From positions 180,001-212,000 of the forward strand of contig NC_022093.1 of the NCBI RefSeq assembly GCF_000446015.1: DNA of 32,000 nucleotides, read 5' to 3'. This document shows, one piece after another, positions 415-30,903 of the stretch. Numbering within the stretch: the stretch's first letter is position 1; each line of letters begins with the position of its first letter. The notes under the pieces are model-generated. The model searched no databases. It saw only the letters and a list, made by a program, of their open reading frames with translations, and was not told the origin of the DNA. The position numbers and the translations under genes were made by a program. Origin of the DNA: Thermofilum adornatum. GTDB taxonomy: Archaea; Thermoproteota; Thermoprotei; Thermofilales; Thermofilaceae.

Positions 415-1614
415 GTGAGTAAAATAAAAATTTCGGAGAGAATAGAGAGGCTAGACTACCCAATAAGGAAATACAATGCCCTGGCTAGAAGCCTTGAGGA
501 AAAAGGAGAAAAAGTAATATACCTTAATATTGGGGACCCGCTCAAATACGACTTTCAGCCCCCTAGGGAACTCATCGAGGAGGCTTGTAGAGCACTGCAG
601 GAGGGCCACCACTATTATTCTTCTTCCGAGGGCTTGAAGGAGCTGAGGGAGGCAATAGCCTACAAAGAAAAGACATGGAACAAGGTGGATATTGACCCGA
701 AAAACATCTTGGTCACAAACGGTGTGTCGGAGGGCATAAACACCTTATACGCAGCGCTGGTCAACGAGGGCGACGAAGTGCTAATACCTGACCCGAGCTA
801 CCCACTATACATAAACTTTGCCGACTTCTATGACGCAAGGAAAGTTTTCTACAGGACAATAGAGGAGGAAGGCTGGATACCAGATATAGACGATATGAGG
901 AAGAAAATCACCGAGAAAACAAGGTTTATAGTTGTAAACAACCCGCACAACCCAACGGGTGCAGTTTATCCAAAGAAAGTTCTCCAAGATATCCTAGACT
1001 TGGCCGCCGAATACAAGCTACCCGTAGTCTCAGACGAAATATACGACGCCATGGTGTTCAACACAGAGTTCCACAGCGTTGCTTCCCTTGCAAAGAGCGA
1101 CAACATAGTTATAGGTATGAACGGCTTCTCCAAGACATATCTAGCCACTGGATGGAGACTCGGCTACATATACCTTAAGGGGCCAGAAGAAGAAATATCA
1201 AACATGAGGACAGCATTCCTCGGATTCCTAATGACAAGACTCTCAGCAGTAACACCCCTGCAAGTCGCTGTTGCGAGAGCAGTCTACAAGACGGGCAGCC
1301 ACCTAAAGGAGCTTGTAAGCAAGCTAGATGAAAGGAGAAGATACTCGGCTAAACGGCTCCGAGAAATACCTGGCTTCAGCTTGCCCGTGGAGCCCAAGGG
1401 AGCCTTCTATGTGTTTCCACGTGTAGACCTAAAAATGAACGATGAAGAATTTGCTAGACAGCTACTTTTAGACGAGAAGGTCTTTGTCGTATACGGCTCT
1501 GGTTTCGGACCCCTAGGCACAAACCATGTGAGACTAGTTTTCCTGCCGCCAGTAGATGTCTTAGAGGAGGCCTTCACGCGAATAGAAAGATTTATGCGAA
1601 AAATTTCTAGCTAA
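415..1614 (+). CDS. Class I/II PLP-dependent aminotransferase (aspartate/alanine aminotransferase-like)
   Basis: 399 aa ORF with a GTG start. It carries the NNPHNPTG motif and the SKTYLATGWRLGY PLP-lysine region typical of fold-type I aminotransferases. Confidence 0.9.
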   Translation: MSKIKISERIERLDYPIRKYNALARSLEEKGEKVIYLNIGDPLKYDFQPPRELIEEACRALQEGHHYYSSSEGLKELREAIAYKEKTWNKVDIDPKNILVTNGVSEGINTLYAALVNEGDEVLIPDPSYPLYINFADFYDARKVFYRTIEEEGWIPDIDDMRKKITEKTRFIVVNNPHNPTGAVYPKKVLQDILDLAAEYKLPVVSDEIYDAMVFNTEFHSVASLAKSDNIVIGMNGFSKTYLATGWRLGYIYLKGPEEEISNMRTAFLGFLMTRLSAVTPLQVAVARAVYKTGSHLKELVSKLDERRRYSAKRLREIPGFSLPVEPKGAFYVFPRVDLKMNDEEFARQLLLDEKVFVVYGSGFGPLGTNHVRLVFLPPVDVLEEAFTRIERFMRKISS

Positions 1615-2030
1615 GGAGCTGTAGGAATTCCTCTTTTTCTCGCTATTTCTTTCAACTCGTCGTCGTAAGTTGCAAGGGTGGCCCCCATTCTTTGTGCGAG
1701 GACAAGTATAATGTAGTCGTTGATCATGGTGGGGTCGGCACCGTCCTCTTTCATCATGTCAAGTGCCCCCATGAAGACCTCGCTGTTTTCGCTGATATAG
1801 ATGAAGCGAGCATCGCTGAAATATTCCTCTAGTTTTTCTCTAACGTTCTCGACATCTATTCGGAACTTCGTGAGTAGAAGCCAGAGGTATTCGTGTATCG
1901 TAATAGAAGCTATGTAGACCCTGTCTGCCTCGTCCAGCAACTGGGCCGCTTCTGCATGTTTCTCGCTGTCCTCAAAGGTGTCGTGAAGCAGTACATCTGT
2001 GTCCACTACCAGTCTTGCTACGTCTCCCAT
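1611..2030 (-). CDS. vapC: PIN-domain ribonuclease, VapC-type toxin
   Basis: 139 aa ORF with N-terminal VVDTDVLLHD (PIN acidic residue context). It overlaps the upstream small antitoxin ORF by 13 nt. Confidence 0.8.
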   Translation of the reverse strand: MGDVARLVVDTDVLLHDTFEDSEKHAEAAQLLDEADRVYIASITIHEYLWLLLTKFRIDVENVREKLEEYFSDARFIYISENSEVFMGALDMMKEDGADPTMINDYIILVLAQRMGATLATYDDELKEIARKRGIPTAP

Positions 2031-15340: not shown

Positions 15341-15781
15341 ATGACGAGTCCTGGTGAGCCGCGGATAAATAAAGAGTACGTTCTCAGCGTAGTAGCAGAA
15401 GCCAGGGACTCTATATCATTTGTAAAGAAAGTTTCCCAGAAGCCTTTCGATTCTCTGTCAGATGCTGAGAAATATGCTATAAGGTATCACTTAATTATAA
15501 TTGCAGAGGCTTTAGCATCAATAGCTCTTCACCTCTGCAGAAACATGTTAAGTCAGAGACCAGAAACTCCGTCGCATGCTGTCAGACTCCTTGCTGACAA
15601 TAACATTATCCCTGGCGAAGTTGCCGAAGACATTTTGAGATTTCTGAGAATGAGAAACCTGCTTGTACACAGGTACTGGACTGTTGACGACAGGAAAATC
15701 TATGAGAACATTAAGAGCGACTTTAATTCTATAGAGAATTTTCTAGAGGTGGTTCTCGAAATTGTCAGAGGAGAGATATAG
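15341..15781 (+). CDS. hepT: HepT-like HEPN (DUF86) toxin
   Basis: 146 aa ORF with the Rx4HxY motif as RNLLVHRY, adjacent to a minimal nucleotidyltransferase. Confidence 0.8.
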   Translation: MTSPGEPRINKEYVLSVVAEARDSISFVKKVSQKPFDSLSDAEKYAIRYHLIIIAEALASIALHLCRNMLSQRPETPSHAVRLLADNNIIPGEVAEDILRFLRMRNLLVHRYWTVDDRKIYENIKSDFNSIENFLEVVLEIVRGEI

Positions 15782-15791
15782 ATACTATACA

Positions 15792-16178
15792 ATGTCTGAA
15801 GAAGAGAGAAAAAAAGTCCTAGACAGACTCAGAGAGATTCTAGCTAAACACGGCGTCGAGCTAGCAATTGTCTTTGGGAGCTTTACATATGCAGAAGAGT
15901 TCAGAGACATCGATATAGCTGTGTATTCAAAAAAGATGACCTTCCAAGACCTGCTAAGGCTTGGAGTAGACCTCGAGCTAGAGCTGGGATTGCCAGTTGA
16001 TGTTGCCCCTCTAGACCAGCTCCCTCCAAGATTCCGGCTTAACGTCCTATTAAGAGGCATAGTCCTGCTAGAAAAACCTGGGCTCTACGAGTGCCTCTAC
16101 ATGCAGACCCAGGACGAACTTATGCAAGCCGAGACCTCAACGAAAAGACAAAGGTTAACAGACACACTGAGGGTCTAA
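15792..16178 (+). CDS. mntA: Minimal nucleotidyltransferase (MNT) antitoxin
   Basis: The ORF track gives 15762..16178, but I prefer the ATG at 15792 (MSEEERKKVL). It has the GS...DxD motif as GSFTYAEEFRDIDIAV. Gene order here is hepT then mnt. Confidence 0.8.
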   Translation: MSEEERKKVLDRLREILAKHGVELAIVFGSFTYAEEFRDIDIAVYSKKMTFQDLLRLGVDLELELGLPVDVAPLDQLPPRFRLNVLLRGIVLLEKPGLYECLYMQTQDELMQAETSTKRQRLTDTLRV

Positions 16179-18139: not shown

Positions 18140-18484
18140 TCACCCCTTTGCTAGGTCCTCCATGAGCCTCTTGACCTCGTAGTAGACAGCACCGAGAGGC
18201 ATGTCCCTGTACAAGACGAAAACCTGCTTCCCAAAGCCGTACTTGGCATAGGCAATACCCGAGCCACTACCCTCGGCTATAAGTATCCTCACACCCATAT
18301 TCCTAGCCTTCCTCAAAAGCTCGGTAGAAAAAGAAAACGTGTCGAGAATGAGGGGAAGCTTCTCCCTGTCAACCTCGCCCACAATCCAGGTCTTCCCATC
18401 CTCCACTGCAACAATGCCCCTAAACCCCCTAACCCTCGCTAATGCAGAGCGAAGCTTCTCCTCGACCCCATCCATGCCTATCAC
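18140..18484 (-). CDS. Roadblock/LC7-like small protein (divergent)
   Basis: 114 aa ORF that aligns by eye along its length with the clearer Roadblock protein at 24552..24923 (VEE..., ...DG..., GSGI.Y...G....FVLY.D.PLG..YY.VK.L). It lies 4 nt upstream of the TIGR00725 gene. Confidence 0.55.
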   Translation of the reverse strand: MIGMDGVEEKLRSALARVRGFRGIVAVEDGKTWIVGEVDREKLPLILDTFSFSTELLRKARNMGVRILIAEGSGSGIAYAKYGFGKQVFVLYRDMPLGAVYYEVKRLMEDLAKG

Positions 18485-18596: not shown

Positions 18597-18654
18597 GTAC
18601 TTCAGCCAATCAAGCTCTCCTCACCGCTCAGAACCAGAAACCATCATCAGCACC
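18597..18654 (-). ncRNA. Candidate C/D box sRNA (2'-O-methylation guide)
   Basis: The reverse strand reads gc-TGATGA-(12 nt)-CTGA-gcgg-TGAGGA-(12 nt)-CTGA. That is C box 18644-18649, D' 18628-18631, C' 18618-18623 and D 18602-18605, with canonical 12-nt guide spacers. A TTTTTATATG box (18671-18680) lies 22 nt upstream of the C box. The locus is intergenic. Confidence 0.55.
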
Positions 18655-18766: not shown

Positions 18767-18997
18767 ATGTGCATGAAGAAAATAACGGTAAGCGACGAAG
18801 TATACAAGAAGCTCTTAGCACTCAAAGGAGAAAAAACCTTCACAGAAATAATCGACGAACTCATAAGAGAAAACGTGAAAAAACGTGCCGAAATGATAAT
18901 CTCCTTGTCAACAAAAAGCCCGCCAGAAGAATATGAAGAAGCAATTAAATTCGTAAAGGAAGGTTTACGGGCCAGACACATCGAAAAAGATACTTGA
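18767..18997 (+). CDS. VapB-like antitoxin (PF02697/DUF217-type), apparently orphan
   Basis: The ORF track gives 18743..18997 (TTG), but I prefer the ATG at 18767 or 18773. KKITVSDEVYKKLLALKGEKTFTEIIDELI is the typical N-terminus of this archaeal antitoxin family. No intact PIN gene follows. Confidence 0.7.
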   Translation: MCMKKITVSDEVYKKLLALKGEKTFTEIIDELIRENVKKRAEMIISLSTKSPPEEYEEAIKFVKEGLRARHIEKDT

Positions 18998-19105
18998 AGC
19001 ATCTTTCCTCTCAGAGGCAAAGATAGGAAAAGTCGAAGTAAAATCGGAAACAAGACAAGAATGCTTCAAGCATTTGGACAAAGGTTTCAACGGGACGCAT
19101 CATGG

Positions 19106-19123
19106 GAAAAATTGAACTAAATT
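19106..19123 (+). promoter_or_regulatory. Shared promoter-proximal motif copy A (GAAAAATTGAACTAAATT) abutting a TATA-like box
   Basis: This 18-mer is identical to the reverse complement of 26949-26966 and matches 25519-25536 at 17/18 positions. It is followed by TCTTTTAAAC (19124-19133) and then the ORF start at 19156 (GTG) or 19165 (ATG). Confidence 0.6.
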
Positions 19124-19155
19124 TCTTTTAAACCCGCAAGACATTCTCTTTCTCG

Positions 19156-19398
19156 GTGAGACACATGGCTGGCAACATAAAGCTAGAAATAACATTCGGG
19201 AACAGTGACCCCCTCAAAGTACAGATACAGGACGGGCAACCCCTCGAGCTACTCCTAGAAAACAATAGCGACGCCACTGTAAGTTACGAAGTGTTACTCA
19301 AAAAGCTAGAGGGGTACCTGACCTATACAATACTCAAACTAGAGCTGGACGGTAAGACGGCCTACCTGGCAGAAGCACAAAGCCGGGAAAAATACTAG
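19156..19398 (+). CDS. Hypothetical small beta-rich protein (possibly truncated by a frameshift)
   Basis: 80 aa ORF behind the motif-bearing promoter. A protein-like reading frame continues in the -1 frame to 19562 (see findings). Confidence 0.5.
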   Translation: MRHMAGNIKLEITFGNSDPLKVQIQDGQPLELLLENNSDATVSYEVLLKKLEGYLTYTILKLELDGKTAYLAEAQSREKY

Positions 19399-19568
19399 AA
19401 AAAGCCCTGCCGCCACGCCAAAGCACGACCCTAAGGCTTAGCGTCCTCTCCCCAAAGACAGTCGAAGACAGCGCAGAGATATCAATAGAGGTAAATGCAA
19501 AACCAGTAGTCGTTCCAAGCGTCCCCATAACAATATTTGAAGAAGTAGAAATAGAGAACTAGAAAAAA

Positions 19569-20927
19569 CTAGCTTCCGTTTCTTCTAGGCTTATACATCA
19601 CTAGCCCCAGAAGGGCAACAATTATAGTGCTAAGCCATACAATCCAGTCCCCAAAGCTTAGGGCAACAAAGAAAACAATCAACACGTTCGCAAGCACGGG
19701 CAAAAGCGGAAAGTCGCCAATATTCAGCGGAACCCTAAAGTGCCTCTTAAGGTCTTTTCTCCTCCTCAACGCAACGACGGAAGAGTTCACGAGCAGGAAG
19801 GCCAGGAGAACCGCTAGGCTCGCAGTCTTCCCGACAAGGTCTATCACCTGGTACTCCTGCCCACCGAAGCTCAGCCTCCACCCAGTTACACTCGGCAGAT
19901 AGTCCGTGAGGAATATCAGCAGTATAGCCAGCGCCCCCGAAAGAGCCACAGCAACGTAGGGCGTCCTCCTCCACTTATCAACTTTGGCGAGCCCGCCCCA
20001 CGCAACCCCCTCCTCCGCGAGCCCATACGCTAGGCGGGAAGAAGACACGAGAAAGCCGAGAACAGTGTTAGTCGTGGCGAATAGGGCTATAACCATAAGC
20101 AACAGGAACGAGCCCGGCCAAGCCCTAGAAGCCGCATCAGCCATAGGGGCCTTGCTCGCTCCTAGCTCCTCCCAGCCCATAAGCCTCACGACAGACACGC
20201 TTACAAGAAGGTAGATAAGAGTCGTAACGCTCACAGCAAGCACGATGGACTTAGGCACAACCCTCTCAGGGTTAAGGGTCTCCTCGCTAAGCGTAGGCTG
20301 GTACTCGAAACCAGTATACGCAAAATAGAAAACCGCGGCCCCAACCAGCACAGCCAGCACGGGGTCAGCAGAGGGGTTAAAAGACAAGTAGCCTGGACTC
20401 CTCTGCGGGAACAACAGGCCAAGCAGGGAAACAAACAGCAGGCCCCCAGCCTCTATAACAGTGAAGACGGCACTCAGCGCCGCGGACTCCTTTATACCCC
20501 ACCAGTTCAGAAAAGACAAGGCAATGAGGAGCACAAACGTCACAGGCACAATCCACGAGTCGCCCAGCCAAAAAAGCCTAGCAAAATAGCTCGAGAAACC
20601 TAGACCAGCAGTCGCGGCCCCAGCAACACCCCCGAAAAACAGCATCCACGCCGCCATGAAGGCTACAAGCCTGCTCTTCGGGAAAGCCTCAGCCACATAC
20701 GTATACGTGCTCGCCGCAGTCGTGAAAATCGAGGAGAGCTCCGCATAGGAAAACGCTGTAGCCACAGCTATCACAGCCGAGAAGGCGACACTCATCCACA
20801 CAGCGTCACCAACAATCCCAGCGGCCCTACCAATCAACACATAGATGCCAGCGCCAAGTATAAGCCCAACACCGAACAGCGTCGCGTAGCCCAGCCCAAG
20901 CTCCCTCTTAAGCTCCGACATACACAT
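19569..20927 (-). CDS. APC-superfamily amino acid/polyamine permease
   Basis: 452 aa ORF with about 12 hydrophobic segments and the N-terminal pattern LGLGYATLFGVGLILGAGIYVLIG typical of the APC family. Confidence 0.9.
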   Translation of the reverse strand: MCMSELKRELGLGYATLFGVGLILGAGIYVLIGRAAGIVGDAVWMSVAFSAVIAVATAFSYAELSSIFTTAASTYTYVAEAFPKSRLVAFMAAWMLFFGGVAGAATAGLGFSSYFARLFWLGDSWIVPVTFVLLIALSFLNWWGIKESAALSAVFTVIEAGGLLFVSLLGLLFPQRSPGYLSFNPSADPVLAVLVGAAVFYFAYTGFEYQPTLSEETLNPERVVPKSIVLAVSVTTLIYLLVSVSVVRLMGWEELGASKAPMADAASRAWPGSFLLLMVIALFATTNTVLGFLVSSSRLAYGLAEEGVAWGGLAKVDKWRRTPYVAVALSGALAILLIFLTDYLPSVTGWRLSFGGQEYQVIDLVGKTASLAVLLAFLLVNSSVVALRRRKDLKRHFRVPLNIGDFPLLPVLANVLIVFFVALSFGDWIVWLSTIIVALLGLVMYKPRRNGS

Positions 20928-20960
20928 AGAAAAAAGAGAAAAACTAAAAAACCTTTACCC

Positions 20961-21278
20961 TTACTCCTTCAGCTCCGCCGAAACCTCGCCCTCAAGCGCC
21001 CCAGAAGCCTGCCATATCTGGATATCCCTAGCAACGATCCTCACTGGCTTCCCGTTCTCAACATAGACAGCAATCTTCCCAGTAATCAGCTTGTTGCTAC
21101 CAATCTTGTCCTCGATAGCAAAGCCAAGACGCTGAACAAGCCTCGCAAGGACACGCCTATGCTCCTGCAACACGGCCCTGTTCCTAGCGCCAACCGCGCC
21201 CCAAACATAGCGGATAAAGCTGCTACCCGTCGGGTTAACCGGCCTAACTAGCTCAAACTCTATCGTCTCACTCATCAA
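20961..21278 (-). CDS. Hypothetical protein
   Basis: 105 aa ORF with protein-like composition and no motif recognised. Confidence 0.55.
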   Translation of the reverse strand: MMSETIEFELVRPVNPTGSSFIRYVWGAVGARNRAVLQEHRRVLARLVQRLGFAIEDKIGSNKLITGKIAVYVENGKPVRIVARDIQIWQASGALEGEVSAELKE

Positions 21279-21350
21279 GCCAAAAAAACAAGCAACAAAT
21301 AAATATACTTAGCGCAGAAAAACAAAGCAAAAAATCGTTTATCCAAGAGT

Positions 21351-21764
21351 TTAACTCTTCTTGTAGACCTGTAGGATTATGAGTTTTGGATAGTCTTTTC
21401 CGCTAGCAGTGTGAAGCTTTATCTCGAGACTAACACCAGGAGTAACAGTAAATTGAGAAGGGGCGTTCTGGAAATACAGAATTAGTGGTGTCTGATTGCC
21501 AGGTTTTAGAGGTATTGGGAAGTTGACGTCTGTGCCACTAACTTTCACCTTTAACCCTGTTGCACTAGATGGAAAAACATTTACGTATATGTCTGTTATT
21601 GTTGCAGTGGATGTTCCAGTGTTCTGAACAATGACGTAGATGCCGTTAGTGTCATCGTATATAGATGTTATTTGGAGCTGCTCGAAGCCCGTGAAGAGCC
21701 CAACGATTCCTGTCATCCAGAAGGCTACCGCTATCGCCACTGCGATTGCAACGCGCGCTACCAC
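21351..21764 (-). pseudogene. Archaeal type IV pilin-like gene, N-terminally damaged paralogue
   Basis: This is a paralogue of 22821..23294. The in-frame ORF can only start at a GTG within the hydrophobic helix (VVARVAIAVAIAVAFWMTG) and lacks the basic-Gly processing site. An ATG-CGT-GGT (M-R-G) lies at 21767-21759 but out of frame, consistent with a non-3n deletion of the signal-peptide region. Confidence 0.6.
21583..21748. repeat. 166-bp near-identical segment shared by the two pilin paralogues (copy 1)
   Basis: Matches 23071-23236 at a constant offset of 1488 bp, with 2 mismatches (21586, 21631). Homology breaks abruptly at 21749. Confidence 0.9.
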
Positions 21765-22471
21765 GCATGAGCTTCAAAGAAGGGCTAGGCATCTCTTTCT
21801 TAATGCAACGGAATTCTTCTTAATTGCATGCTTCCTTATCTACATCAGAGATCTCAAAGCTGAGACTGCACACGCACCGTGTTGCCCCGCCTTGTCTCGG
21901 AGTTATGAGTTCTTTCTTCTCTCGCAATAGCTCGATACGACTTTCAGCGAACGCGCTGAACATTTATTCCACCCATTCGCTTTCAAGGAGTCTGATAGCA
22001 GGTCCTACTGGACGCCGCAGTCTCAAAAGCTCCTTGGCTTTTTGAGCAAGTGCATGCATCACTTCGGGCAGACACGCATCCACCCCAAAGTACAAAGGGT
22101 GTGCTCTGAGCTCGGTTCTGACGATGACAGGGCAGAGCTCTTGCCTTCTCTCATCCTTTTGCTTTTCCAGCGGCATGTCTTAGAGCTTATGAGGTTAGCA
22201 AAAAGTGTTTCGCGTGTTGATGCACCCCCGCTCCACACCTATTCTTCAAGCAACCCGAGAAAAGTGTGATGATTCACACCCGAGGCTTCCGCAAGGCAAT
22301 GCCAGGCTCGGAAGACGCGACCACAGGGCCGCCTTAAACATCAAGAAAATGGTGGGGAGGCTAGGAGAGCCTCGTCAGCAAACAGTCTGTTATAGGCGCT
22401 CCCAGAGCCCTCTTTATAACTGAAAGAATACATAAACCCGTGAAGAGCGCTAGCCGCACGACTCACTGTGT

Positions 22472-22531
22472 CAGGGTCAGCTACGGCCGCTCTCCTCACC
22501 GCTCAGCGACGGAATTGCACATCATCAAAGC
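22472..22531 (-). ncRNA. Candidate C/D box sRNA, paralogue of the 18.6 kb locus
   Basis: The reverse strand reads ttTGATGA-(15 nt, or TGATGT + 12 nt)-CTGA-gcgg-TGAGGA-(12 nt)-CTGA. That is C 22522-22527, D' 22503-22506, C' 22493-22498 and D 22477-22480. The 18-nt core CTGAGCGGTGAGGAGAGC is identical to the 18.6 kb locus while the guide spacers differ. Confidence 0.45.
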
Positions 22532-22820
22532 CCTCGGCACAACACGTGCTAAAAGCAACCCATGTACTAGGAATAGCGGAGGAGCCCCCTGCACCTAGCA
22601 CGCTCAGCATAGCAATAATGAAGCCAAAGCCGCTGAACGCCCAACAAGCTCGCGCTGTCGCTCTGATACAGAGCCATATTCCTTATACACTGCCAGACCT
22701 AGATGTAACGGATAAATCTGCTACACACCGAGTTAACAGCCTAACAAGCTTAACCTTCACTGTTTCACAATTAAATAGAATATATAAGAAGATAAAAAAA
22801 TATTTTTAACATGCCTCTGC

Positions 22821-23294
22821 TTATCCGCCAGTTCGATATGCCTGTAGGACTATTAGCTTGGGATAGTCTTTACCACCAGCTGTGTGCAGCTTTATCTCAA
22901 GGCTAACGCCTGGCCGAACTGTAAAGGGAGGATTATTCAAAGTGATGTGTAGAGTCGCTGACGAACCTGCTGGAAATGTTATTCCACCAGTTGCTAAGTC
23001 ACCCTGCACGTTGCCTTGAATATTTTGTAATTCAACCTGTAATCCGACCTGAGTGCTGGGGAGCCCGTTCACGAATATGTCTGTTATTGTTGCAGTGGAT
23101 GTTCCAGTGTTCTGAACAGTGACGTAGATGCCGTTAGTGTCATCGTATATAGATGTTATTTGGAGCTGCTCGAAGCCCGTGAAGAGCCCAACGATTCCTG
23201 TCATCCAGAAGGCTACCGCTATCGCCACTGCGATTGTGACTGCAACGATGATGACGGTCGCTATTACGGGGCTTATACCCCTTCTTTTCTGCAT
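22821..23294 (-). CDS. Archaeal type IV pilin-like protein (class III signal peptide)
   Basis: 157 aa ORF. MQKRRG/ISPVIATVIIVAVTIAVAIAVAFW is a basic-Gly prepilin peptidase site followed by a hydrophobic helix, then a beta-rich domain. A CTTTATAAGG box lies about 35 nt upstream. Confidence 0.8.
   Translation of the reverse strand: MQKRRGISPVIATVIIVAVTIAVAIAVAFWMTGIVGLFTGFEQLQITSIYDDTNGIYVTVQNTGTSTATITDIFVNGLPSTQVGLQVELQNIQGNVQGDLATGGITFPAGSSATLHITLNNPPFTVRPGVSLEIKLHTAGGKDYPKLIVLQAYRTGG
23071..23236. repeat. 166-bp near-identical segment shared by the two pilin paralogues (copy 2)
   Basis: Matches 21583-21748 with 2 mismatches. Confidence 0.9.
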
Positions 23295-23546
23295 AGTTTA
23301 TCATGTATTTTTCTTTTTTTTCCTTATAAAGCTTTTGGCTACCTGGCTTGGAAACAGTTCCCGGGAATAGCTTTTGCCAGCTTATATATACGGCAGGCTT
23401 TCCTACGTGCCTTGTTTGGGCAAACACCACTTTGGGAAACTCTCGAACAATATGCCTCTCACGTAACTAGTTTATTGCCGTTATGTTTCAATTTGTCATG
23501 ATAAATAATGCGCAAACTTATTATTAACCAGCGGTAATAATTAGTT

Positions 23547-23687
23547 ATGCTCGCTTCTAAGGAGCTAGACAAGAAGGAAAAGCTGAGAATACACGAGTCA
23601 GACAAGGTAATCATTATACACAGCGAAGAGTCAGACTGGGCAAAGAGGCTAGCAGAGGGGCTAAAGAGGGAGCTAGGCCTAGAATAA
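23547..23687 (+). CDS. Possible small protein (46 aa)
   Basis: Below the ORF-track cutoff. It reads MLASKELDKKEKLRIHESDKVIIIHSEESDWAKRLAEGLKRELGLE, and an A/T-rich box lies about 25 nt upstream. There is no homology evidence. Confidence 0.3.
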   Translation: MLASKELDKKEKLRIHESDKVIIIHSEESDWAKRLAEGLKRELGLE

Positions 23688-23830
23688 AAAGAAAAAACAA
23701 ATAGACCGGCAACTCCCAGGACTCATCAAACGCGTAAATATGGCACCACTAAACACATGAGGATACCCTGTATTCTAGTTTCAAAAGGGGAGCGGGTGCG
23801 GACTGGGAACCGTGTCGGCCCGCAGGGGAA

Positions 23831-23840
23831 GATTTAAATC
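23831..23840 (+). promoter_or_regulatory. TATA box of the tRNA-Gln gene
   Basis: GATTTAAATC lies about 35 nt upstream of the mature tRNA 5' end, consistent with a short leader. Confidence 0.5.
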
Positions 23841-23871
23841 TGGGCCCTTTACAATATTCATGTCGCACCGG

Positions 23872-23948
23872 AGCCCGGTGGTGTAGCGGCCAAGCATGGC
23901 GGGCTTTGGACCCGCAGATCCGGGGTTCGAATCCCCGCCGGGCTACCA
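23872..23948 (+). tRNA. tRNA-Gln: tRNA-Gln (anticodon UUG), CCA encoded
   Basis: Folded by hand: acceptor AGCCCGG/CCGGGCT, anticodon stem GCGGG/CCCGC, loop CTTTGGA (anticodon TTG), T arm CGGGG-TTCGAAT-CCCCG, discriminator A, then CCA. The A1-U72 pair is typical of archaeal tRNA-Gln. No intron. Confidence 0.93.
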
Positions 23949-23999
23949 GCCTATGTTTCTGGATTTTCTTGAAGCCTAAAGAACAAGGCGCGACCATCT

Positions 24000-24362
24000 C
24001 TATGGAACGTTTACAAACAAGCTGTACTCTTTTCCCGTAGATGTGACAAACGTTACTTGTAGTGTCTGCGCGCTGGTCTCTGTTTCTAGGGTGTGAGTGG
24101 AGGTTTCTCCGGGATTTATGGTTGCCTGGAATTCTAGAGGCTGGCCGTTTATCTTTGCAAGTATGATCGTAGCGGGCTTTGTTCCCCTGTTTTTGATGTA
24201 TGCCGTGACTGTGACTTTTGTGCCTTGGCGCTGTGCCTGTAGCTTTATGTCTAGGAGCTCTATGTCTGTGTGCATAGTGGCGATGTTGCTCAGCCAGAAG
24301 ACTGCAGCTATAGAAACAGCGATTACGACAGCGATTATAATCAGGTTCTCGAAGGTTTCCAT
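24000..24362 (-). CDS. Pilin-like membrane-anchored protein lacking a canonical processing site
   Basis: 120 aa ORF. It starts METFENLIIIAVVIAVSIAAVFWL, followed by a beta-rich domain with the same layout as the pilin paralogues (..V.V...N.G...ATI....NG.P...PG.S....T..GK.Y). There is no basic-Gly motif, and an in-frame stop lies directly upstream of the ATG. Confidence 0.6.
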   Translation of the reverse strand: METFENLIIIAVVIAVSIAAVFWLSNIATMHTDIELLDIKLQAQRQGTKVTVTAYIKNRGTKPATIILAKINGQPLEFQATINPGETSTHTLETETSAQTLQVTFVTSTGKEYSLFVNVP

Positions 24363-24551
24363 AGCCTATATACTGCCTCCCATGGTTTTAAGCTTTATCC
24401 AGGGGGCTCTCTAAAGACGCCCCGAGGGCGTTAACGCCTGCATCCTAGACACGCAATCTCTTCTATATACGTTGGGCAGGCTAAAACCTTAGATAACTCT
24501 AATGAAGTTATTCAAATAGCGAGAAAAATCACACAGAAAAATAGCCCGGTT

Positions 24552-24923
24552 CTAGTGTGTTGTTTCTAGTTTTTTCTTTATGTCTCTTAGTGTGTATAGT
24601 AGTACTCCTAGACGTGTATCTTTGTTGAATAGGACTGCTAGGTATCCTATTTGGCCTAGCCTTGTGTAAATTATCCCCGAGCCGTCTGGGGCGTTGACTG
24701 TTATCCATTCCGCCTCGCCCTTTCCCAGCTCCGTGCTAGCCCTGTTGCCCACCTCGCTCAACACAGCCGTCAAAGCGGCGACCTTCTCCTCCAGCTCCTT
24801 GTCAGCAAGACTACTAAACAACGGCAAACCATCACTACTCGAAACAACAAACCCCTCAACACCACCAACCCTGGCCACACCTTCAACAACACGCCTAACC
24901 TCCTCAACACTCATCCCGACCAC
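24552..24923 (-). CDS. Roadblock/LC7 (MglB-like) domain protein
   Basis: 123 aa ORF. The pattern VGGVEGFVVSSSDGLPLFS...AALTAVL...G..I.....GYLAVLF..DTRLG is typical of Robl_LC7. The start lies 3 nt after the stop of the upstream globin-like gene. Confidence 0.8.
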   Translation of the reverse strand: MVGMSVEEVRRVVEGVARVGGVEGFVVSSSDGLPLFSSLADKELEEKVAALTAVLSEVGNRASTELGKGEAEWITVNAPDGSGIIYTRLGQIGYLAVLFNKDTRLGVLLYTLRDIKKKLETTH

Positions 24924-24926
24924 CCC

Positions 24927-25490
24927 TTACTTTACGCCTAGCTCTTTCATTATGTCTTTTAGTGTGACTGCCTGTAGCCTCTTGTAGACTCCCTCGTTTA
25001 TCCCTAGGACTTTGTCGAAGAGCCTCTGCCTCATGACGTCGTAGCCGAGGACGATTATCCTCAGGCTCCAGTGGACAGACTTGAGGACGGGGGCAAGGTA
25101 TGGGCTGTCCTTGGGGATACGGCTTATAACTTGATGCGTGACGAACGCGAGCTTCGATAGTAGTGTCGGCAAGGGTATCCCGGCACCCGCAAAGGTGAAG
25201 CCCATCTTCGAGATAGCCATGCAGTGATCCATGTCATAGTTGCCGTAAAAGATGGCTGTCATCCATTGCCCGAGCATCGCCTTCACGTTGTCTAGCCCTA
25301 GACTCTGCAAGAGGTTTGCCCCTTCGGGATCCTTCTGCAACCCCTCAATAATCTCTGCCACGATTTTGTCCTTCTGTGGAAGCACAAACTGCGACGCCTC
25401 GCGGAGCCTCTGCTTGTCCTCCTCGCCTAGACCCACGTATCGGGAGATCTCTGCACAGCCCTTTGAAATTAGATCCTGCATATGGGTCAA
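24927..25490 (-). CDS. Protoglobin/globin-coupled-sensor-like domain protein, apparently without the proximal His
   Basis: 187 aa ORF. It matches the protoglobin layout: YVGLGEEDKQRLREA..., ...AEIIEGL..DPE...L, ...GNYDMDH..., SKMGFTFAGAGIPLPTLL. At the position of the RIGxxHxRIGL histidine it has F. Confidence 0.7.
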   Translation of the reverse strand: MTHMQDLISKGCAEISRYVGLGEEDKQRLREASQFVLPQKDKIVAEIIEGLQKDPEGANLLQSLGLDNVKAMLGQWMTAIFYGNYDMDHCMAISKMGFTFAGAGIPLPTLLSKLAFVTHQVISRIPKDSPYLAPVLKSVHWSLRIIVLGYDVMRQRLFDKVLGINEGVYKRLQAVTLKDIMKELGVK

Positions 25491-25518
25491 GCCGGTAGCG
25501 GACCCTTGGTTTATAAAA

Positions 25519-25536
25519 AATTTAGTTCAATTTTTG
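25519..25536 (-). promoter_or_regulatory. Shared promoter-proximal motif copy C (CAAAAATTGAACTAAATT on the reverse strand)
   Basis: Matches copies A and B at 17/18 positions. It abuts the TTTTTATAAA box (25510-19), and the start codon at 25490 is about 20 nt downstream. Confidence 0.6.
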
Positions 25537-25688
25537 ATGAGCATTTCTCTCTTTTATTTTTAAAAATTATACTTTTCCTTCTCATGATAAAACTACAATA
25601 TATCAATAAAATTTTTGCAGAATAAAAGTTGCATAAATCATTGAATTGATATAAAGGCTTTATCAAAATAGGAGCCCCTAGAATATGA

Positions 25689-26273
25689 CTATCTTAGCTC
25701 TTGGGATATTTCCTGGGCGAGCTCCCTAGCATATATCCTTATCAGCCTATTATACACGTCCTCGTTTATCCCCGTCGCCCTCTCGAAGATCCTCTGTCTC
25801 ACAACCTCGTAGCCAAGCATAACAACAGTCAGGTTCCACCTCAAAGCCTTCAACACGACTGGGAAAAGATGGCCGGCTACTACATGCCTCGAAATAACCT
25901 CCGTCACAGTAGCAAGCTTCGCGAGGACAAAGCCTGGAGGCAAGCCGTGGGCGGCAAGCGTCAAGCCTATCTTTGACACCTCTAGACACATTTTTTCACC
26001 ATAGTCCCCCTGAAAAGCCGCAACGAGCCAGCCCCTAAGCATGCCCTCCAACGCTTCCCTAGTGAGCCCAGCCTCCTGAAAGATCCTGGCCGCCTCGGGG
26101 TCACGGAAAAGCTCCCCAAGTATCTCGCCGACAATCTCTCCGCCCTTTTCGATGACGCCATGCGAGGCCTTGTGCAGGAGCTCTACCTCGGCCTGTCCCA
26201 TCCCAAGAAACTCTGCTATCTGGCTACAGTTATTTGCTAGAATCTCCCTTAAAGGAGCCCTATGGTTAGGCAT
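25689..26273 (-). CDS. Protoglobin/globin-coupled-sensor-like domain protein, paralogue 2
   Basis: 194 aa paralogue of 24927..25490 (FLGMGQAEVELLHKA..., GDYGEKMCLEVSKIGLTLAAHGLPPGFVL). It has a His three residues away from the canonical F8 position. Confidence 0.7.
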   Translation of the reverse strand: MPNHRAPLREILANNCSQIAEFLGMGQAEVELLHKASHGVIEKGGEIVGEILGELFRDPEAARIFQEAGLTREALEGMLRGWLVAAFQGDYGEKMCLEVSKIGLTLAAHGLPPGFVLAKLATVTEVISRHVVAGHLFPVVLKALRWNLTVVMLGYEVVRQRIFERATGINEDVYNRLIRIYARELAQEISQELR

Positions 26274-26373
26274 GGTTATTCCACCCTTGATACCTATATC
26301 CTTCCAAATATTTGTTGTTTTTATGAATAAAAAATCTATGTAGCCAACATAACCAAAAGCCTAAGGAAACTGG

Positions 26374-26916
26374 CTACTTCGCCTGGGGCCTCGACTCCTG
26401 TCTCTTCTTTGTTTCTGCCTTTTTCTTAGCAATTGGATATGCAAATATGCACTGGCCGTCTTCCTGCTTTGCTGGCATTTCTCCTCTCTCCATGTCGTAT
26501 CTCTCCTTTAGCTTGAGCAGACCTAGCCCTTCTAGGTAGCCCTTAACGAAGCCTATTAATGGGCATGCAGTCAAAGGCGACTCCAGCCCACCCGTGTCCC
26601 TCGGGCATATCCTGCAAGACTCCCTGTCAAGCCTCACCTCCACGCTACCCCCTCTCTGCTCGACCACTAGCTCGTCTGTAAAGCCCATTAAGTCGTTGAG
26701 GAACTGTAATGCCTCCTCTGCGCTCTCAAAGCTCAGCCCGTGGACCGAGACGTACTCAGCCATACAGCGGCCAGTATGCTCCGAGGCCTCCCTTAACACG
26801 TTTAGACCTAGTACACCTGTTTCCATTAGCCTTGCCAGCATACATGCAATATACACGTGGTACGCGTTTGCATTTACCTTTAAGGCCCTCTCAACGTCCC
26901 ACGCCATCTTCATCAC
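26374..26916 (-). CDS. V4R (4-vinyl reductase-like) domain protein with a basic C-terminal tail
   Basis: 180 aa ORF. ESCRICPRDTGGLESPLTACPLIGFVKGYLEGLG resembles the CxxC...C.P..G...G core of V4R domains. The K/R-rich tail is KKKAETKKRQESRPQAK. Confidence 0.65.
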   Translation of the reverse strand: MMKMAWDVERALKVNANAYHVYIACMLARLMETGVLGLNVLREASEHTGRCMAEYVSVHGLSFESAEEALQFLNDLMGFTDELVVEQRGGSVEVRLDRESCRICPRDTGGLESPLTACPLIGFVKGYLEGLGLLKLKERYDMERGEMPAKQEDGQCIFAYPIAKKKAETKKRQESRPQAK

Positions 26917-26948
26917 GGGGCAACAAACGAGGAGGACGCCTTATAAGG

Positions 26949-26966
26949 AATTTAGTTCAATTTTTC
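26949..26966 (-). promoter_or_regulatory. Shared promoter-proximal motif copy B (GAAAAATTGAACTAAATT on the reverse strand)
   Basis: Exact reverse complement of 19106-19123. It abuts the CCTTATAAGG box (26939-48), and the V4R start at 26916 is 22 nt downstream. Confidence 0.6.
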
Positions 26967-27255: not shown

Positions 27256-27433
27256 ATTTAACAAGCAAATCTTCAACACAACATTTCAAAAAGCCTAGCG
27301 AAACATGGATCAGCCCAATGTCTCTACAACCACAGGGGATAGCCACACAGCCCTCCATGCGGAACCATGGACAAAAATACGTGAGCATATTTATTTAGCC
27401 ACGTTACAATATATTGGGAGAAAGTGGATCGGC

Positions 27434-28426
27434 ATGGAGGCTAGAGCCAGGCAGGAAAAATATATACCGATGAGGCTGGTAACGAGGGAAGAGTACCTAG
27501 AATACATCAAGACACATAGAACCGTACGCATAGAGGACGAGGAGATCCCCATTGGGAAACCCCACAGGATCGAGAAGTACGCGCCAGACGACTCCGCCCT
27601 CGAGACCACGACCGTGTGGTCCTTCCCGGACAGGGGCGACTGGGCAACGCACAGGGGCGACTATAGGGGGAACTGGGCCCCACAGATACCGAGAAACCTC
27701 ATACTTAGATACAGCAGGCCCGGGGAGACAGTCCTCGACCAGATGTGTGGAAGCGGGACAACACTAGTCGAAAGCAAGCTCCTTGGGAGAAACGCCATAG
27801 GCGTAGACATAAACTACGAGGCAGTCATGCTCACCATGGACCGTCTCAACTTCAGCTATAGGCCCCTCGACCCAGACTACAGGGAGCCAGAGATAAGGGT
27901 CTATCATGGCGACGCCCGGAACCTGAACCTCATCGAAGATGAATCCATAGACCTTATAGCGACTCATCCTCCCTACGCAAACATAATCTCGTACTCTAAA
28001 GCCAAGAGAATTGAGGGAGACCTATCACAAGTCTACAGCCTGGAGGAGTACCTGCAGGGAATAAGGGAAGTAGCCAAGGAGAGCTTCAGAGTCCTGAAGC
28101 CCGGCAGGTACTGCGCGATACTCATAGGCGACACCAGGAGGCACAGGCACTACGTACCCATAGCATTCAGAGTCATGCAACAGTTTCTCGAGGTTGGATT
28201 CATACTGAGGGAAGACATCATCAAGATACAGTGGAACACAAAGACAACCGAAAAGAAGTGGGCCCGGCTAGCGAAGACAAGCGAAGAAAACTGGATAGAC
28301 AAGCCAGAAAACAAAAAACACTGGACAGACTTCTACCTAATAGCACATGAGCACTTATTCGTTTTTAGAAAGCCAGCCGAAGGCGAGGACATAGAAAAGT
28401 ACAGAGACAGCATGAAGTGGTGGTGA
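27434..28426 (+). CDS. Type II DNA methyltransferase (N6-adenine or N4-cytosine), motif I before motif IV
   Basis: The ORF track gives 27305..28426. The first 43 codons lie in the stop-free low-complexity region, so I prefer the ATG at 27434 (an ATATTTATTTA box lies about 40 nt upstream). It has the SAM motif VLDQMCGSGTT and the catalytic-type motif DLIATHPPY. Its end overlaps the endonuclease start by 10 nt. Confidence 0.85.
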   Translation: MEARARQEKYIPMRLVTREEYLEYIKTHRTVRIEDEEIPIGKPHRIEKYAPDDSALETTTVWSFPDRGDWATHRGDYRGNWAPQIPRNLILRYSRPGETVLDQMCGSGTTLVESKLLGRNAIGVDINYEAVMLTMDRLNFSYRPLDPDYREPEIRVYHGDARNLNLIEDESIDLIATHPPYANIISYSKAKRIEGDLSQVYSLEEYLQGIREVAKESFRVLKPGRYCAILIGDTRRHRHYVPIAFRVMQQFLEVGFILREDIIKIQWNTKTTEKKWARLAKTSEENWIDKPENKKHWTDFYLIAHEHLFVFRKPAEGEDIEKYRDSMKWW

Positions 28427-29331
28427 AACTGGTAAGATACCAGCTCCTAGGCTTCAATACAGAGGAAGAGTATCTAAAGCATTTCCTAGACACACTCCTC
28501 GAGACAAACTGGACATACGAATACTTCGTGGACTGGGACAAGGTCAGAAGCAACGTAAAGAGCTATGTCAAGGAAATCTGCCTCCTAAACGCCTTGACAA
28601 AGATAGAAAAAGAGAAAAGAGAAAGCGAGCTCAAAGATATATTCCTAAGATACCCCGAAACAATCAAGGTCATACCCCTACTTATCGCTGTCCGAGAAAA
28701 CAGCATACCCATCCTAGAGATAAGCGAAAAAGCCATCTACAAAGTATTTGACTTTAAAGAACGCAAGCTAAGCCCCAAAGAAGCCGAGGAGCTCGTCCAC
28801 TTCTGCAGGAACATAGGCATCTTAGACCTTTTCGCGGAAATAAGTGACCTATACGCCTACCTACTAGGAGTAGAAGTCGGACTAGACACAAATGCGCGAA
28901 AAAACCGTAGCGGGAAGATATTCGAGAACTTGGTCGAGTTGCTACTAAATAGGAAACTAGCAGGAATCAAAGACCTTAGGATTAAAAAGAACGACAAGAG
29001 CGTTAAAATTTCTAGGAGCAAGAACGCTGACTTTGTCATATACTATAAGGGAGAACCCAAAGTAATCATCGAATGCAGTTTTTACAGCGAAACAGGAAGC
29101 AAACCCATCGAAACGGCAAACTCATACATAGACCTACAAAAGAAAATCCAACAAAAGAACATATACTTCATCTGGATAACCGACGGCAGGGCATGGAAAT
29201 CAATGGAAAACACAATCAACCAAGTCGCCAAGGAAATCGACTTCCTATTGAACTACAACATTGCCAGCGAAAAAATAGACAAGCTAATCGAGCACATTTT
29301 ATCTGACAAGAACAATTCTCGACAGCCCTAG
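28417..29331 (+). CDS. DpnII/MboI-family type II restriction endonuclease (probably GATC-specific)
   Basis: 304 aa ORF with a GTG start. The blocks YPETIKVIPLLIAVR, GVEVGLDTNARKNRSG, SFYSETGSKPIETANSY and WITDGRAW match my recollection of conserved DpnII blocks. Confidence 0.85.
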   Translation: MVVKLVRYQLLGFNTEEEYLKHFLDTLLETNWTYEYFVDWDKVRSNVKSYVKEICLLNALTKIEKEKRESELKDIFLRYPETIKVIPLLIAVRENSIPILEISEKAIYKVFDFKERKLSPKEAEELVHFCRNIGILDLFAEISDLYAYLLGVEVGLDTNARKNRSGKIFENLVELLLNRKLAGIKDLRIKKNDKSVKISRSKNADFVIYYKGEPKVIIECSFYSETGSKPIETANSYIDLQKKIQQKNIYFIWITDGRAWKSMENTINQVAKEIDFLLNYNIASEKIDKLIEHILSDKNNSRQP

Positions 29332-30071
29332 CCAAGCCAACCGGCCGGAATCCCCCGCTGCTCGTCCACCACGCGCTGGCCAGCCTTGTCCACTACGCCA
29401 AGGACATAGCTCCAAGCCCTAGACACCCTCTCCCTCACGCCCTGCCCCGCCAAGGACTGCGGCACAAACACCCTCCCAATGCTCGCCCGCGAAAAAAGCC
29501 ACGCAGAAAAGAATCCCTCGCCAAGCCCCTCGACCATTGTCCTCGAGGGAGCCTCTCCAAACAGCCAGTATAGGTCCCGGGCAAAGTTGCCCGCAATGTT
29601 CCTCAGCAGGTCCCTCTCCAGCTCCGGGAAGACGCTTGGCCCAAGCCTCTCAGCAACGTATTTCGGGAAGCTTCCGCCTTCCGGAACAAAATACGCGCCA
29701 CTGGCAGACATAAGGTAAGCCTCAGACCCCAAAATTATGGACGGATCCCCAGCCAGGTACACGGCAGACGCCACAGTGAAAGAGTGGTAAATGCTCTTGA
29801 GTAGCCGGGCGTAGGCCTCCTCCAGGCTTTCAACATAGATCCTGCCCTCTGCAACGAGAGACTTGACCTCGTCGTCCTCAAAGTACCCCTGCAACACGAC
29901 CCTGCCGTCTATGGAGAAAGCTGGCACACCGAATACGCCCTTCTCTAGGGCATGGAAGGGGGCCTTCTCGACATTTAGAAAATTTATCCGGCCCAGCAGT
30001 CCCTCCGCCTTTAAGATTGTGTACACGTGGTATGACTCAGAGCACCTTGGGTGAACATATACTTCAAGCAT
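29328..30071 (-). CDS. Thioredoxin-fold protein (monothiol CSES instead of CxxC) with an unknown C-terminal domain
   Basis: The ORF track gives 29328..30143, but I prefer the ATG at 30071 (MLEVYVHPRCSESY...), which has a GATTTATTCC box about 35 nt upstream. GVPAF (cis-Pro loop) and the beta-alpha-beta layout suggest a glutaredoxin/thioredoxin fold. Confidence 0.6.
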   Translation of the reverse strand: MLEVYVHPRCSESYHVYTILKAEGLLGRINFLNVEKAPFHALEKGVFGVPAFSIDGRVVLQGYFEDDEVKSLVAEGRIYVESLEEAYARLLKSIYHSFTVASAVYLAGDPSIILGSEAYLMSASGAYFVPEGGSFPKYVAERLGPSVFPELERDLLRNIAGNFARDLYWLFGEAPSRTMVEGLGEGFFSAWLFSRASIGRVFVPQSLAGQGVRERVSRAWSYVLGVVDKAGQRVVDEQRGIPAGWLG

Positions 30072-30419
30072 ACATAAGGCAGATAAGTTGAGGAATAAAT
30101 CTGTTTCGCGTGCGGGGAAAATGTGCATTGAACAAAGGAGCAATTAGGAAGGTCACATAGTTTGATGCACAACACGGCTAGGTCTAGAAGCACCACTTAA
30201 AGACACAAGGAACCAATATAGATGGGTTAAACCATGCAACCGCCCCTGCGAATAGATGAACCGGAGTGTGGGTATGGGAAATGGAGCGCTAGCGGGAGCA
30301 TAGATAATAAATATGGTGTAGATAACTTATCTCGCAATTGAGAAGGTACCCAAGAGAATGGTTTAGAAATTTGCTTCGACTTTTGGTCTTTGTTGGAGAA
30401 CTCAACGAACTGGAGCAAA

Positions 30420-30903
30420 ATTATCCTTGTCCAGGAGCTTTTCCAATGTGTTGGTAAATTTTCTTCCTTTATTTAGCTATTTTAAATTATGTGTTATGTT
30501 ATAATTCTTCTGTAATTCGTATTACGGATTACAGTATACGATTTATGATATCTGTCGTATGAGTTTTGTGTTACGGGTTCTCCGTTACTGACTTTCTCAC
30601 CTTGTTTTGATATTCATTGAGGGTTATGTTTTGTTCGCTCCATTTGTAAAATTACTTTTGTTATTTAAAAGGCTAACATTTAAGATAAAAGGAGGCTTCG
30701 TTATTTTAAACAATACGTTTATTTAAACATGTAAGGTTTTTTGGAAACGTTATTTTTAAAAAGAAGAGTGTTATAATAATCTTTGAGCCTTTTTTTGATT
30801 TTAATGCCTATGTGTCTTGGATTAGTTAAACATTTATGTAGCTAATTATGTAATAATTTTTGTGATGAATCCTGAGGCATTAATGAATGCTTTGAGGGAA
30901 TAA
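30420..30903. other. AT-rich non-coding region marking a composition boundary
   Basis: About 480 bp without a credible ORF, very A/T-rich. It contains four copies of a (C/T)GTT(T)ATTT(T)AAA motif at 30657-30762. Confidence 0.7.

Follow-up and report, generated by a model that had tools for sequence, protein, structure and literature searches.

A 32,000-nt stretch of the genome of the archaeon Thermofilum adornatum (contig NC_022093.1, positions 180,001 to 212,000; hereafter the window, in whose own numbering coordinates are given) contains three nearly identical boxes of 18 nt. Each of them precedes a TATA box and a start codon, and the genes behind them code for a small beta-sandwich-like protein, a V4R-like protein and a protoglobin. 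This raises the question whether the boxes are a shared regulatory site and, if so, of which kind. An initial annotation made from the letters of the window had linked the three promoters into one putative regulon. We found that the box has kept its sequence, position and orientation in orthologous promoters of Thermofilum relatives and that a fourth promoter elsewhere in Thermofilum genomes carries it as well. The box is probably the operator of a dedicated regulator.

Three copies of an 18-nt box in the window

Box copy 1, GAAAAATTGAACTAAATT, is located at 19106-19123 on the forward strand. Copy 2 is the identical 18-mer on the reverse strand (26949-26966), and copy 3, CAAAAATTGAACTAAATT, also on the reverse strand (25519-25536), has a single mismatch in which a C replaces the first G. 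Exact matching thus confirmed both the inverted pair and the 17/18 copy reported in the initial annotation. The invariant core GAACTAAA lies at 19114-19121, 26958-26951 and 25528-25521 in copies 1, 2 and 3, respectively.

Three copies (two exact, one with one mismatch) in the 32-kb window compare with an expectation of 0.03, derived from 100 dinucleotide-preserving shuffles of which none reached three or more matches. No further site was found in the window with up to three mismatches allowed, and shorter sub-patterns did not reveal degenerate copies there either, be it inside genes or elsewhere. A scan of the window with a position weight matrix built from independent sites was bimodal: each of the three copies exceeds 30 bits, and the highest score elsewhere is 14.7 bits. 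The possibility that the motif is a repeat residing mostly inside genes was checked in 52 kb chosen without motif bias, namely the window and a 20-kb Thermofilum locus (L222; loci outside the window are denoted by L numbers). In both, neither the remaining promoters nor the coding sequence contain the motif; the 18-mer lies in no gene, and the bare 8-mer GAACTAAA occurs once more, intragenically at 13147. Copies 1 and 2 are alike over 52 nt (79% identity); copy 3 has only the box and the TATA box in common with them.

Two weak look-alikes were also noticed in the window, GAAAAGTCGAAGTAAAAT at 19027-19044 (forward strand, 11.8 bits) and CAAAAGTCGAAGCAAATT at 30368-30385 (reverse strand, 14.7 bits). 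They form a 24-nt inverted repeat of 79% identity, the first member of which is kept in L001 and L123. This pair is probably due to chance.

A search of the literature for the motif string yielded unrelated primers and sequences only. Compared with genome contigs, the bare 17-mer gives at least 120 chance matches in AT-rich bacteria and none in Thermofilum among the matches listed. It occurs exactly in many genomes of Atopobium, Lancefieldella and Collinsella (L013, L016, L027, L036, L044, L058, L062; further such loci among the matches listed are L077, L082, L091, L092, L096, L102 and others), which suggests a conserved sequence in these bacteria unconnected with the archaeal box.

Position of the box relative to TATA box and start codon

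In promoter 1 the TATA box TTTTAAA (19126-19132, forward strand; the 8-nt stretch TTTTAAAC spans 19126-19133) begins 2 nt past box copy 1. Promoters 2 and 3 show the TATA hexamer TTATAA on the reverse strand at 26941-26946 and 25511-25516, respectively, again 2 variable nt past the box. The initial annotation had the motif abutting the TATA-like box directly. The two elements do adjoin, but the two variable nucleotides in between have to be added. The distance of 2 nt between the end of the core and a TATA box of the form TTWTAAA, as well as the single orientation, holds in all four promoter classes (the fourth is described below) and in their orthologues. Between the four classes, AAAAATTGAACTAAATT, the spacer and YTTWTAAA are the only common parts. 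The geometry is thus conserved as proposed initially, with spacing and orientation to the TATA box fixed in all classes.

One correction concerns the start codons, which had been placed about 20 nt after the TATA-like box (19156, 26916 and 25490). These are GTG/TTG starts of the longest open reading frames (ORFs), and comparison with orthologues points to ATG codons at 19165, 26907 and 25481 instead, 33, 33 and 29 nt from the respective TATA hexamer. At 19165 ATG and GTG alternate between strains, and a Shine-Dalgarno-like GGTGA is found 5 nt upstream (19155-19159). Orthologues of the protein starting at 26907 open with M-(A/V)-W-(D/N)-V and have GGTGR 6-8 nt upstream. In the fourth class the TATA-to-ATG distance is 23 nt, a leaderless geometry, so that every box copy is followed by a start codon 23-33 nt downstream as counted from the TATA box.

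Conservation of the core among Thermofilum relatives

Evidence for conservation was taken from promoters fetched through their downstream protein, without recourse to the motif. Since it was the motif that had picked out the metagenome loci L137-L216, these served to find new contexts, not as evidence for conservation. Relatives of the V4R-like protein encoded behind copy 2, a member of the MJ0207 family, are available at 54-65% identity, several of them carrying the name Thermofilum sp.

The comparison of orthologous promoters proposed in the initial annotation was run on seven promoters of this family, anchored at the core. The 12-nt core TTGAACTAAAYY shows a mean pairwise identity of 0.91, the TATA octamer of 0.65, while the 2-nt spacer, the 30 nt upstream and the 30 nt following the TATA box range at 0.31-0.32. 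In other words, a core of 91% identity is embedded in flanks of ~32%. The box is present upstream of the MJ0207-family orthologues in L124, L125, L130, L134, L227, L133 and L131. It is the exact 18-mer in L130 and L134 and reads GAAAAATTGAACTAAACT in L124, GGAATTGAACTAAATT in L227, GAGGAGTTGAACTAAATT in L133 and CAATCGAACTAAACC in L131/L132, in each case directly before the TATA box. In T. adornatum the core is preceded by the purine/A tract GGGAAAAA.

The other two copies are retained as well. Copy 1 is kept in L001, L123 and L136, which were fetched by the downstream protein, and copy 3 in L002 and L123-L127. Moreover, the box stays with the orthologous gene despite a differing neighbourhood in L131, L227 and L228. 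Judged from this long-term retention, the core of the box is under selection. Nor is it a generic BRE (B recognition element, the site of transcription factor B, TFB), which would recur in most promoters of the organism: the other promoters of the window are of AAAAG type before the TATA box and lack TTGAACTAAA.

Genes downstream of the boxes and a fourth promoter

Promoter 1 precedes the gene of a 132-aa beta-sandwich-like protein (19165-19562, forward strand, stop codon 19560-19562), which is intact with 132 aa in L001 and L123. The window is ~98% identical to Thermofilum CP007493.1. Relative to this strain and to metagenome copies, the window lacks 1 nt of a G-run near 19367-19369, and the reading frame of the gene is thereby broken. 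The gene may be a pseudogene of the strain sequenced, or the deletion may be a sequencing error. For a 1.75-Mb contig, a product of 77 aa (P0019) is recorded. The 80-aa ORF of the initial annotation is therefore not a gene of its own but, according to the CP007493 alignment, the 5' part of the frameshifted 132-aa gene. The protein has weak similarity to Cupredoxin_1, and its beta-sandwich signal is faint. Homology to the operon's 120-aa pilin-like protein was considered and rejected, the similarity not being significant.

Promoter 2 precedes, as first gene of its unit, that of a 177-aa protein (26374-26907, reverse strand) which belongs to the MJ0207 family (PF27343) according to precomputed Pfam assignments and may have a V4R/TRAPPC3/H-NOX-like fold. 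An AlphaFold (AF2) model built from eight homologues reached a predicted local distance difference test (pLDDT) score of 68.6. Compared with Bet3/TRAPPC3, H-NOX and the V4R sensor domains of PoxR/MopR/DmpR it gave template modelling (TM) scores of 0.40-0.45 at E-values of 1e-3 to 1e-1. A Pfam search of the protein returned no match to PF02830. The label V4R, given initially, is weakly supported, by the weak fold match and the precomputed assignment to PF27343 'MJ0207'; we use the term V4R-like. Invariant cysteines of the protein are C24, C50, C100, C103, C117 and C155. V4R-type domains possess a Cys cluster for Zn, and the structural neighbours found with the model are those reported for archaeal V4R/TRAPPC3 proteins (PMC10933270).

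The V4R-like gene is followed by a gene for the protoglobin paralogue Pgb2 (194 aa; 25689-26273, reverse strand), whose upstream region has no box of its own. Pgb2 is probably co-transcribed from promoter 2, since its orthologue in L130 sits 10 nt after the V4R-like gene. The order in L130 is box promoter, V4R-like gene, protoglobin and Roadblock gene, the protoglobin being identified as the Pgb2 orthologue by 63% identity versus 42% to the second paralogue, Pgb1. In the window, Pgb1 (184 aa; 24927-25481, reverse strand; PF11563, E 6.6e-12) follows promoter 3 and is 37% identical to Pgb2. The Roadblock/LC7 protein (120 aa; 24552-24914, reverse strand; PF03259, E 1.5e-11) follows 12 nt after Pgb1 as the last gene of the unit and is called as a gene in L001 and L123, too. 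In related species a single box promoter serves the V4R-like, Pgb2 and Roadblock genes. In T. adornatum an additional paralogue, Pgb1, and a second box promoter belonging to it have been inserted ahead of the Roadblock gene. The duplicated promoter cassette suggested in the initial annotation is therefore supported as the history of the Pgb1 promoter. As the sole account it is highly improbable, because the core was kept while the flanks diverged. A distant paralogue of the Roadblock protein (114 aa, 18140-18484, reverse strand, no Pfam match; 29% identity over 123 aa, pairwise E 2e-4) is encoded near box copy 1, yet its gene is not itself preceded by a box.

A scan of metagenome contigs for the box combined with a TATA box yielded 85 loci, ~55 of which were discarded as AT-rich chance matches by a GC content below 0.42. 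The Thermofilum-like loci (GC 0.43-0.55) comprise the three known classes and a new one (L152, L168, L192, L196). Here the start codon (ATG) of a 147-aa protein stands 23 nt past GGGAAAAATTGAACTAAATT-AC-TTTTAAA. The protein cluster includes T. adornatum isolate proteins of 106 aa (AGT34430.1, AJB42159.1), and the fourth promoter was recovered in the Thermofilum genome assemblies L222-L225, which were fetched through the protein. There are thus at least four box promoters, the fourth outside the window; the suspicion that more copies might exist proved right. The 147-aa protein may also be V4R-like. A relationship is suggested by an ACPLxG motif that both proteins contain and by secondary structure elements that follow each other in a similar order. 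Comparison by hhalign gave no support for homology to the MJ0207 family (probability 2%), and the AF2 model of the 147-aa protein was too poor for a fold search (pLDDT 46).

Taken together, the sequence data support a regulon of at least four units: the V4R-like gene with Pgb2, Pgb1 with the Roadblock gene, the 132-aa beta-sandwich gene and the gene of the 147-aa protein. The regulon idea of the initial annotation is borne out by conservation in orthologues, fixed spacing and orientation, the lack of degenerate intragenic copies in the window and the fourth promoter.

Natural variants of the box promoters

Several rearrangements have taken place at the box or next to it. In front of the 132-aa gene, three unrelated upstream contexts meet at GGGAAAAATTGAAC and in this way define the 5' edge of the box. 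One of the three is L144, where the VapB-like gene found upstream of copy 1 is deleted, with the junction located 2 nt before the 18-mer. L128 and L129 are devoid of the V4R-like gene and Pgb2 and exhibit a hybrid promoter, copy-2-like upstream and copy-3-like downstream; the two direct copies have therefore recombined. L134 has a hybrid promoter too, with the junction inside the box. Tandem duplications of 12-13 nt between box and TATA box are seen in L196 and L228/L229. In L228/L229, ACTAAATTAC stays beside the TATA box and the full box lies 13 nt further upstream. A second upstream box, GRGAMG, occurs ~8 nt 5' of the 18-mer in several promoters. Owing to its absence in L144 and L150 and its variable spacing we leave it unconfirmed.

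The box as probable operator of a dedicated regulator

Based on these findings we consider the box to be probably the operator of a dedicated sequence-specific regulator of Thermofilum, with an activator being more likely than a repressor. As the core stops 2 nt short of the TATA box, its 3' half would cover the usual BRE position and its 5' half would reach ~6-12 bp beyond it. The predicted factor would bind the box in a fixed orientation, recruit TFB and the TATA-binding protein (TBP) to an otherwise weak core promoter, and thereby switch at least four transcription units together. A strict orientation would fit the asymmetry of the core. Binding of a protein, the sign of regulation, the transcription starts and the signal are what we infer here from sequence. 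As to the signal, our guess is a gas or a small ligand because of the globin and V4R/H-NOX-like content of the regulon.

In archaea the usual site of an activator lies immediately ahead of BRE/TATA, in promoters whose BRE or TATA box is weak, and that of a repressor overlaps BRE/TATA or the transcription start (PMC5937170, PMC5512572). The bases beside the TATA box are T/C or variable in the box promoters, not purine-rich as in a good BRE. This apparently weak BRE, together with the typical position of activators upstream of BRE/TATA, is why an activator is favoured.

Several observations weigh against a dedicated regulator of this kind. No helix-turn-helix (HTH) protein was detected by Pfam and NCBIfam among ~40 ORFs of the window, and no HTH gene conserved beside the box was seen among the loci examined. 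The sole neighbour resembling a transcription factor is a 129-aa HTH_10 (Bat-type) protein, convergent to the V4R-like gene and confined to one GC-rich lineage (10573-10962 in L228 and 2084-2473 in L229, both reverse strand), without a homologue in the other Thermofilum loci examined. The asymmetry of the core is unusual for dimeric archaeal regulators. A dyad symmetry, AAATT-N6-AATTT, is present only in the T. adornatum lineage; its left arm is replaced by GAGGAGTT or CAGCAATC in relatives, and the palindrome is lost in the GC-rich ones. Moreover, copies of the box in the same genome resemble each other more closely than do the members of typical, degenerate operator sets, and a site overlapping the BRE could equally block TFB. 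As a separate observation, the conserved 247-aa upstream neighbour (ORF 29328-30143, inferred start 30071) gave faint thioredoxin-like matches only.

The last of these objections leads to a repressor operator, where the bound factor sits on the BRE position and keeps TFB/TBP away by steric hindrance until it is released by a ligand. Indeed, the core has its 3' half within ~7 bp of the TATA box, the zone in which repressors compete with TFB/TBP (PMC5937170, PMC5512572), and TATA boxes of the form TTWTAAA look good, so that basal transcription could be strong unaided. However, the strongest conservation (TTGAAC) runs upstream and away from the TATA box, nothing past the TATA box is conserved, and the pyrimidine-rich or variable positions adjacent to it are a trait of activator-dependent promoters. 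Sequence alone cannot decide between activation and repression, but we regard a repressor site, although the foremost alternative, as rather unlikely. It is conceivable, too, that no separate regulator exists and the box is a specialised core-promoter element, i.e. a longer or different form of the BRE that is recognised by one TFB in particular, or by one pair of TBP and TFB, and defines a sigma-like promoter class. An asymmetric element in one orientation at a fixed 2 nt from the TATA box would suit such a role, the tandem duplication of L228/L229 kept just the ACTAAATTAC part at the TATA box, and the haloarchaeal hsp5 promoter provides an earlier example of regulation directed by general transcription factors that requires no more than BRE/TATA (PMC2396416). 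The BRE is described as 6-7 nt directly upstream of the TATA box, purine-rich and with key positions -3 and -6 (PMC5512572), the Pyrococcus consensus being VRAAA (PMC5937170). The conserved stretch of the box measures 12 nt (18 within the species), about twice that length. Relative to TTWTAAA the box has A at -6, T at -3 and variable bases at -2 and -1; a shift by 4 nt would turn ACTAAA into a good BRE. ACTAAA would also fit the crenarchaeal BRE pattern, RNWAAW. The T at -3 and the variable -2 would speak against a BRE in the register set by TTWTAAA. A special core-promoter element appears improbable.

The favoured operator also has to be set against explanations in which the likeness of the promoters has no present function. 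A good core promoter might have been spread as a cassette by duplication or gene conversion along with paralogous genes, so that the resemblance is historical. The 52 nt of 79% identity around copies 1 and 2, the second box promoter that goes with the extra paralogue of the Pgb1/Pgb2 pair, and the recombination between copies (the deletion between direct copies in L128/L129 and the junction within the box in L134) are in line with this. Yet the core is ~91% identical where the proteins are only 54-65% identical and the flanks are randomised, the box and the TATA box alone are common between classes, and in two classes the downstream genes have no demonstrated relation to those of the remaining ones. 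A neutral cassette is hence disfavoured, TTGAACTAAA having been kept while the flanks decayed, and we consider it highly improbable. The three copies lie within 8 kb, two of them direct and one inverted, close to a tRNA-Gln gene, and copies have recombined; this might further recall a dispersed repeat, the end of a mobile element, an att site or a structured RNA that came to lie near promoters by accident. Against this, neither exact 18-mers inside genes nor degenerate copies were found in the window, the orientation relative to TATA box and start codon is constant, and the box follows the orthologous gene through differing neighbourhoods (L131, L227, L228). Scanning 18-28 kb of the window with Rfam covariance models gave no family match at the box sites and, being upstream of the TATA box, the box is not transcribed by its own promoter. 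A scan of viral contigs gave one match, in a 501-kb contig, that was taken as chance. The probability of an accidental repeat is therefore close to negligible in our view.

Comparison with known archaeal promoter elements

Elements of this kind have been described before; the motif, its organism and the regulon of protoglobins, V4R-like, Roadblock and beta-sandwich proteins appear to be new. One of the closest analogues is the ara-box of arabinose-inducible promoters in Sulfolobus solfataricus. It is a short consensus derived from co-regulated crenarchaeal promoters, situated directly upstream of BRE/TATA, dependent on a weak BRE and described before its factor was known (PMC5512572); the same combination would apply to the Thermofilum box. 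The two differ in sequence, organism and regulon (sugar catabolism versus globin, V4R-like and Roadblock proteins). Induction through the ara-box was demonstrated experimentally, whereas the Thermofilum box is known from its sequence. Moreover the ara-box is palindromic and the Thermofilum core is asymmetric.

In line with the mechanism predicted for the Thermofilum box, TFB-RF1 (PF1088) of Pyrococcus furiosus binds just upstream of a weak BRE/TATA, controls a very small regulon of two promoters and activates by recruitment of TFB (PMC5937170). It recognises a palindrome, TCTG-N5-CAGA, and its gene belongs to the operon that it regulates. In contrast, the Thermofilum box is asymmetric and overlaps the BRE position, and no regulator gene linked to it was found in the loci examined. 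The sites of EarA in the fla promoter of Methanococcus maripaludis and Pyrococcus furiosus are short, non-palindromic consensus sequences directly upstream of BRE/TATA, which are required owing to a poor BRE (PMC5512572, PMC10665913). They consist of four 6-bp repeats at one promoter as opposed to a single 12-18-bp box at four promoters. The hsp5 promoter of Halobacterium (TFB2/TFBb) resembles the box promoters in that regulation is confined wholly to the BRE/TATA region with strict orientation (PMC2396416). However, hsp5 needs nothing outside BRE/TATA, and the conserved block of Thermofilum extends ~6-12 bp beyond the BRE.

A different likeness concerns the content of the regulon and not the box. 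In the CO-responsive CorQR system of Thermococcus onnurineus, a stand-alone V4R protein and a DNA-binding partner sense a gas (PMC6557876); the Thermofilum regulon combines haem-type protoglobins with one or two proteins that are V4R-like. A LysR-type partner and a CO dehydrogenase (CODH) cluster as in CorQR were not seen near the Thermofilum loci, and we regard the link as a lead only. It could be imagined that the box marks a self-contained response module for a gas or small ligand, in which protoglobins, the one or two V4R/H-NOX-like proteins and Roadblock are co-induced via a BRE-overlapping element. The element would be read by a dedicated TFB paralogue, which would amount to a crenarchaeal promoter class of sigma-like type, or by a monomeric regulator of a new kind that receives feedback from the sensor proteins of the regulon as in CorQR. 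In this full form we hold the proposal to be improbable.

Other features of the window

A tRNA-Gln(TTG) gene is located at 23872-23948 (forward strand), and the overlapping 82-aa ORF at 23749-23997 (reverse strand) is spurious. Two sequences resembling C/D-box sRNAs (18600-18654 and 22475-22529, both reverse strand) stay below threshold with 26-31 bits compared to gathering cut-offs of 36-45. They coincide with a pair of 39-nt direct repeats of 74% identity and may represent unannotated guide RNAs. Two pilin-like paralogues (21351-21764 and 22821-23294, both reverse strand) have a 169-nt stretch of 98% identity in common. In this region the window is ~1.1 kb longer than strain CP007493, pointing to a recent duplication or gene conversion.

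A restriction-modification pair (27305-29331, forward strand) composed of an N6_N4 DNA methylase and a DpnII-like endonuclease is inserted between the conserved 247-aa gene and the operon that starts with the V4R-like gene. The related metagenome loci L124, L125 and L128 lack it, which marks it as a strain-variable insertion. The region 30100-30900 is an AT-rich stretch (GC ~0.37) of ~0.8 kb without convincing genes, which contains several short repeats as well as a palindrome at 30510-30534 (CTGTAATTCGTA/TACGGATTACAG). The VapB-like antitoxin gene (18767-18997, forward strand), deleted in L144, has no adjoining PIN toxin gene. Further toxin-antitoxin parts are a PIN-domain gene at 1611-2030 (reverse strand) and a HepT-like/nucleotidyltransferase pair at 15341-16178 (forward strand).

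Significance of the box

Protoglobins, V4R/TRAPPC3-like proteins and Roadblock/LC7 proteins are widespread in archaea. To our knowledge their physiological roles in these organisms are largely unknown, and we are aware of few cis-elements for Thermofilaceae. A descent of eukaryotic signalling and trafficking modules from protoglobin, stand-alone V4R/TRAPPC3-like and Roadblock/LC7 proteins has been discussed (PMC10933270). The element is of a familiar kind, and its value would lie mainly in its use as an experimental handle. The defined box may serve as bait for DNA-affinity purification of the predicted regulator, and the box promoters as reporters for the inducing signal, for which O2, NO, CO or redox state are guesses. 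Finally, the box would offer a natural test case for a regulator site that abuts or overlaps the BRE in a crenarchaeon.

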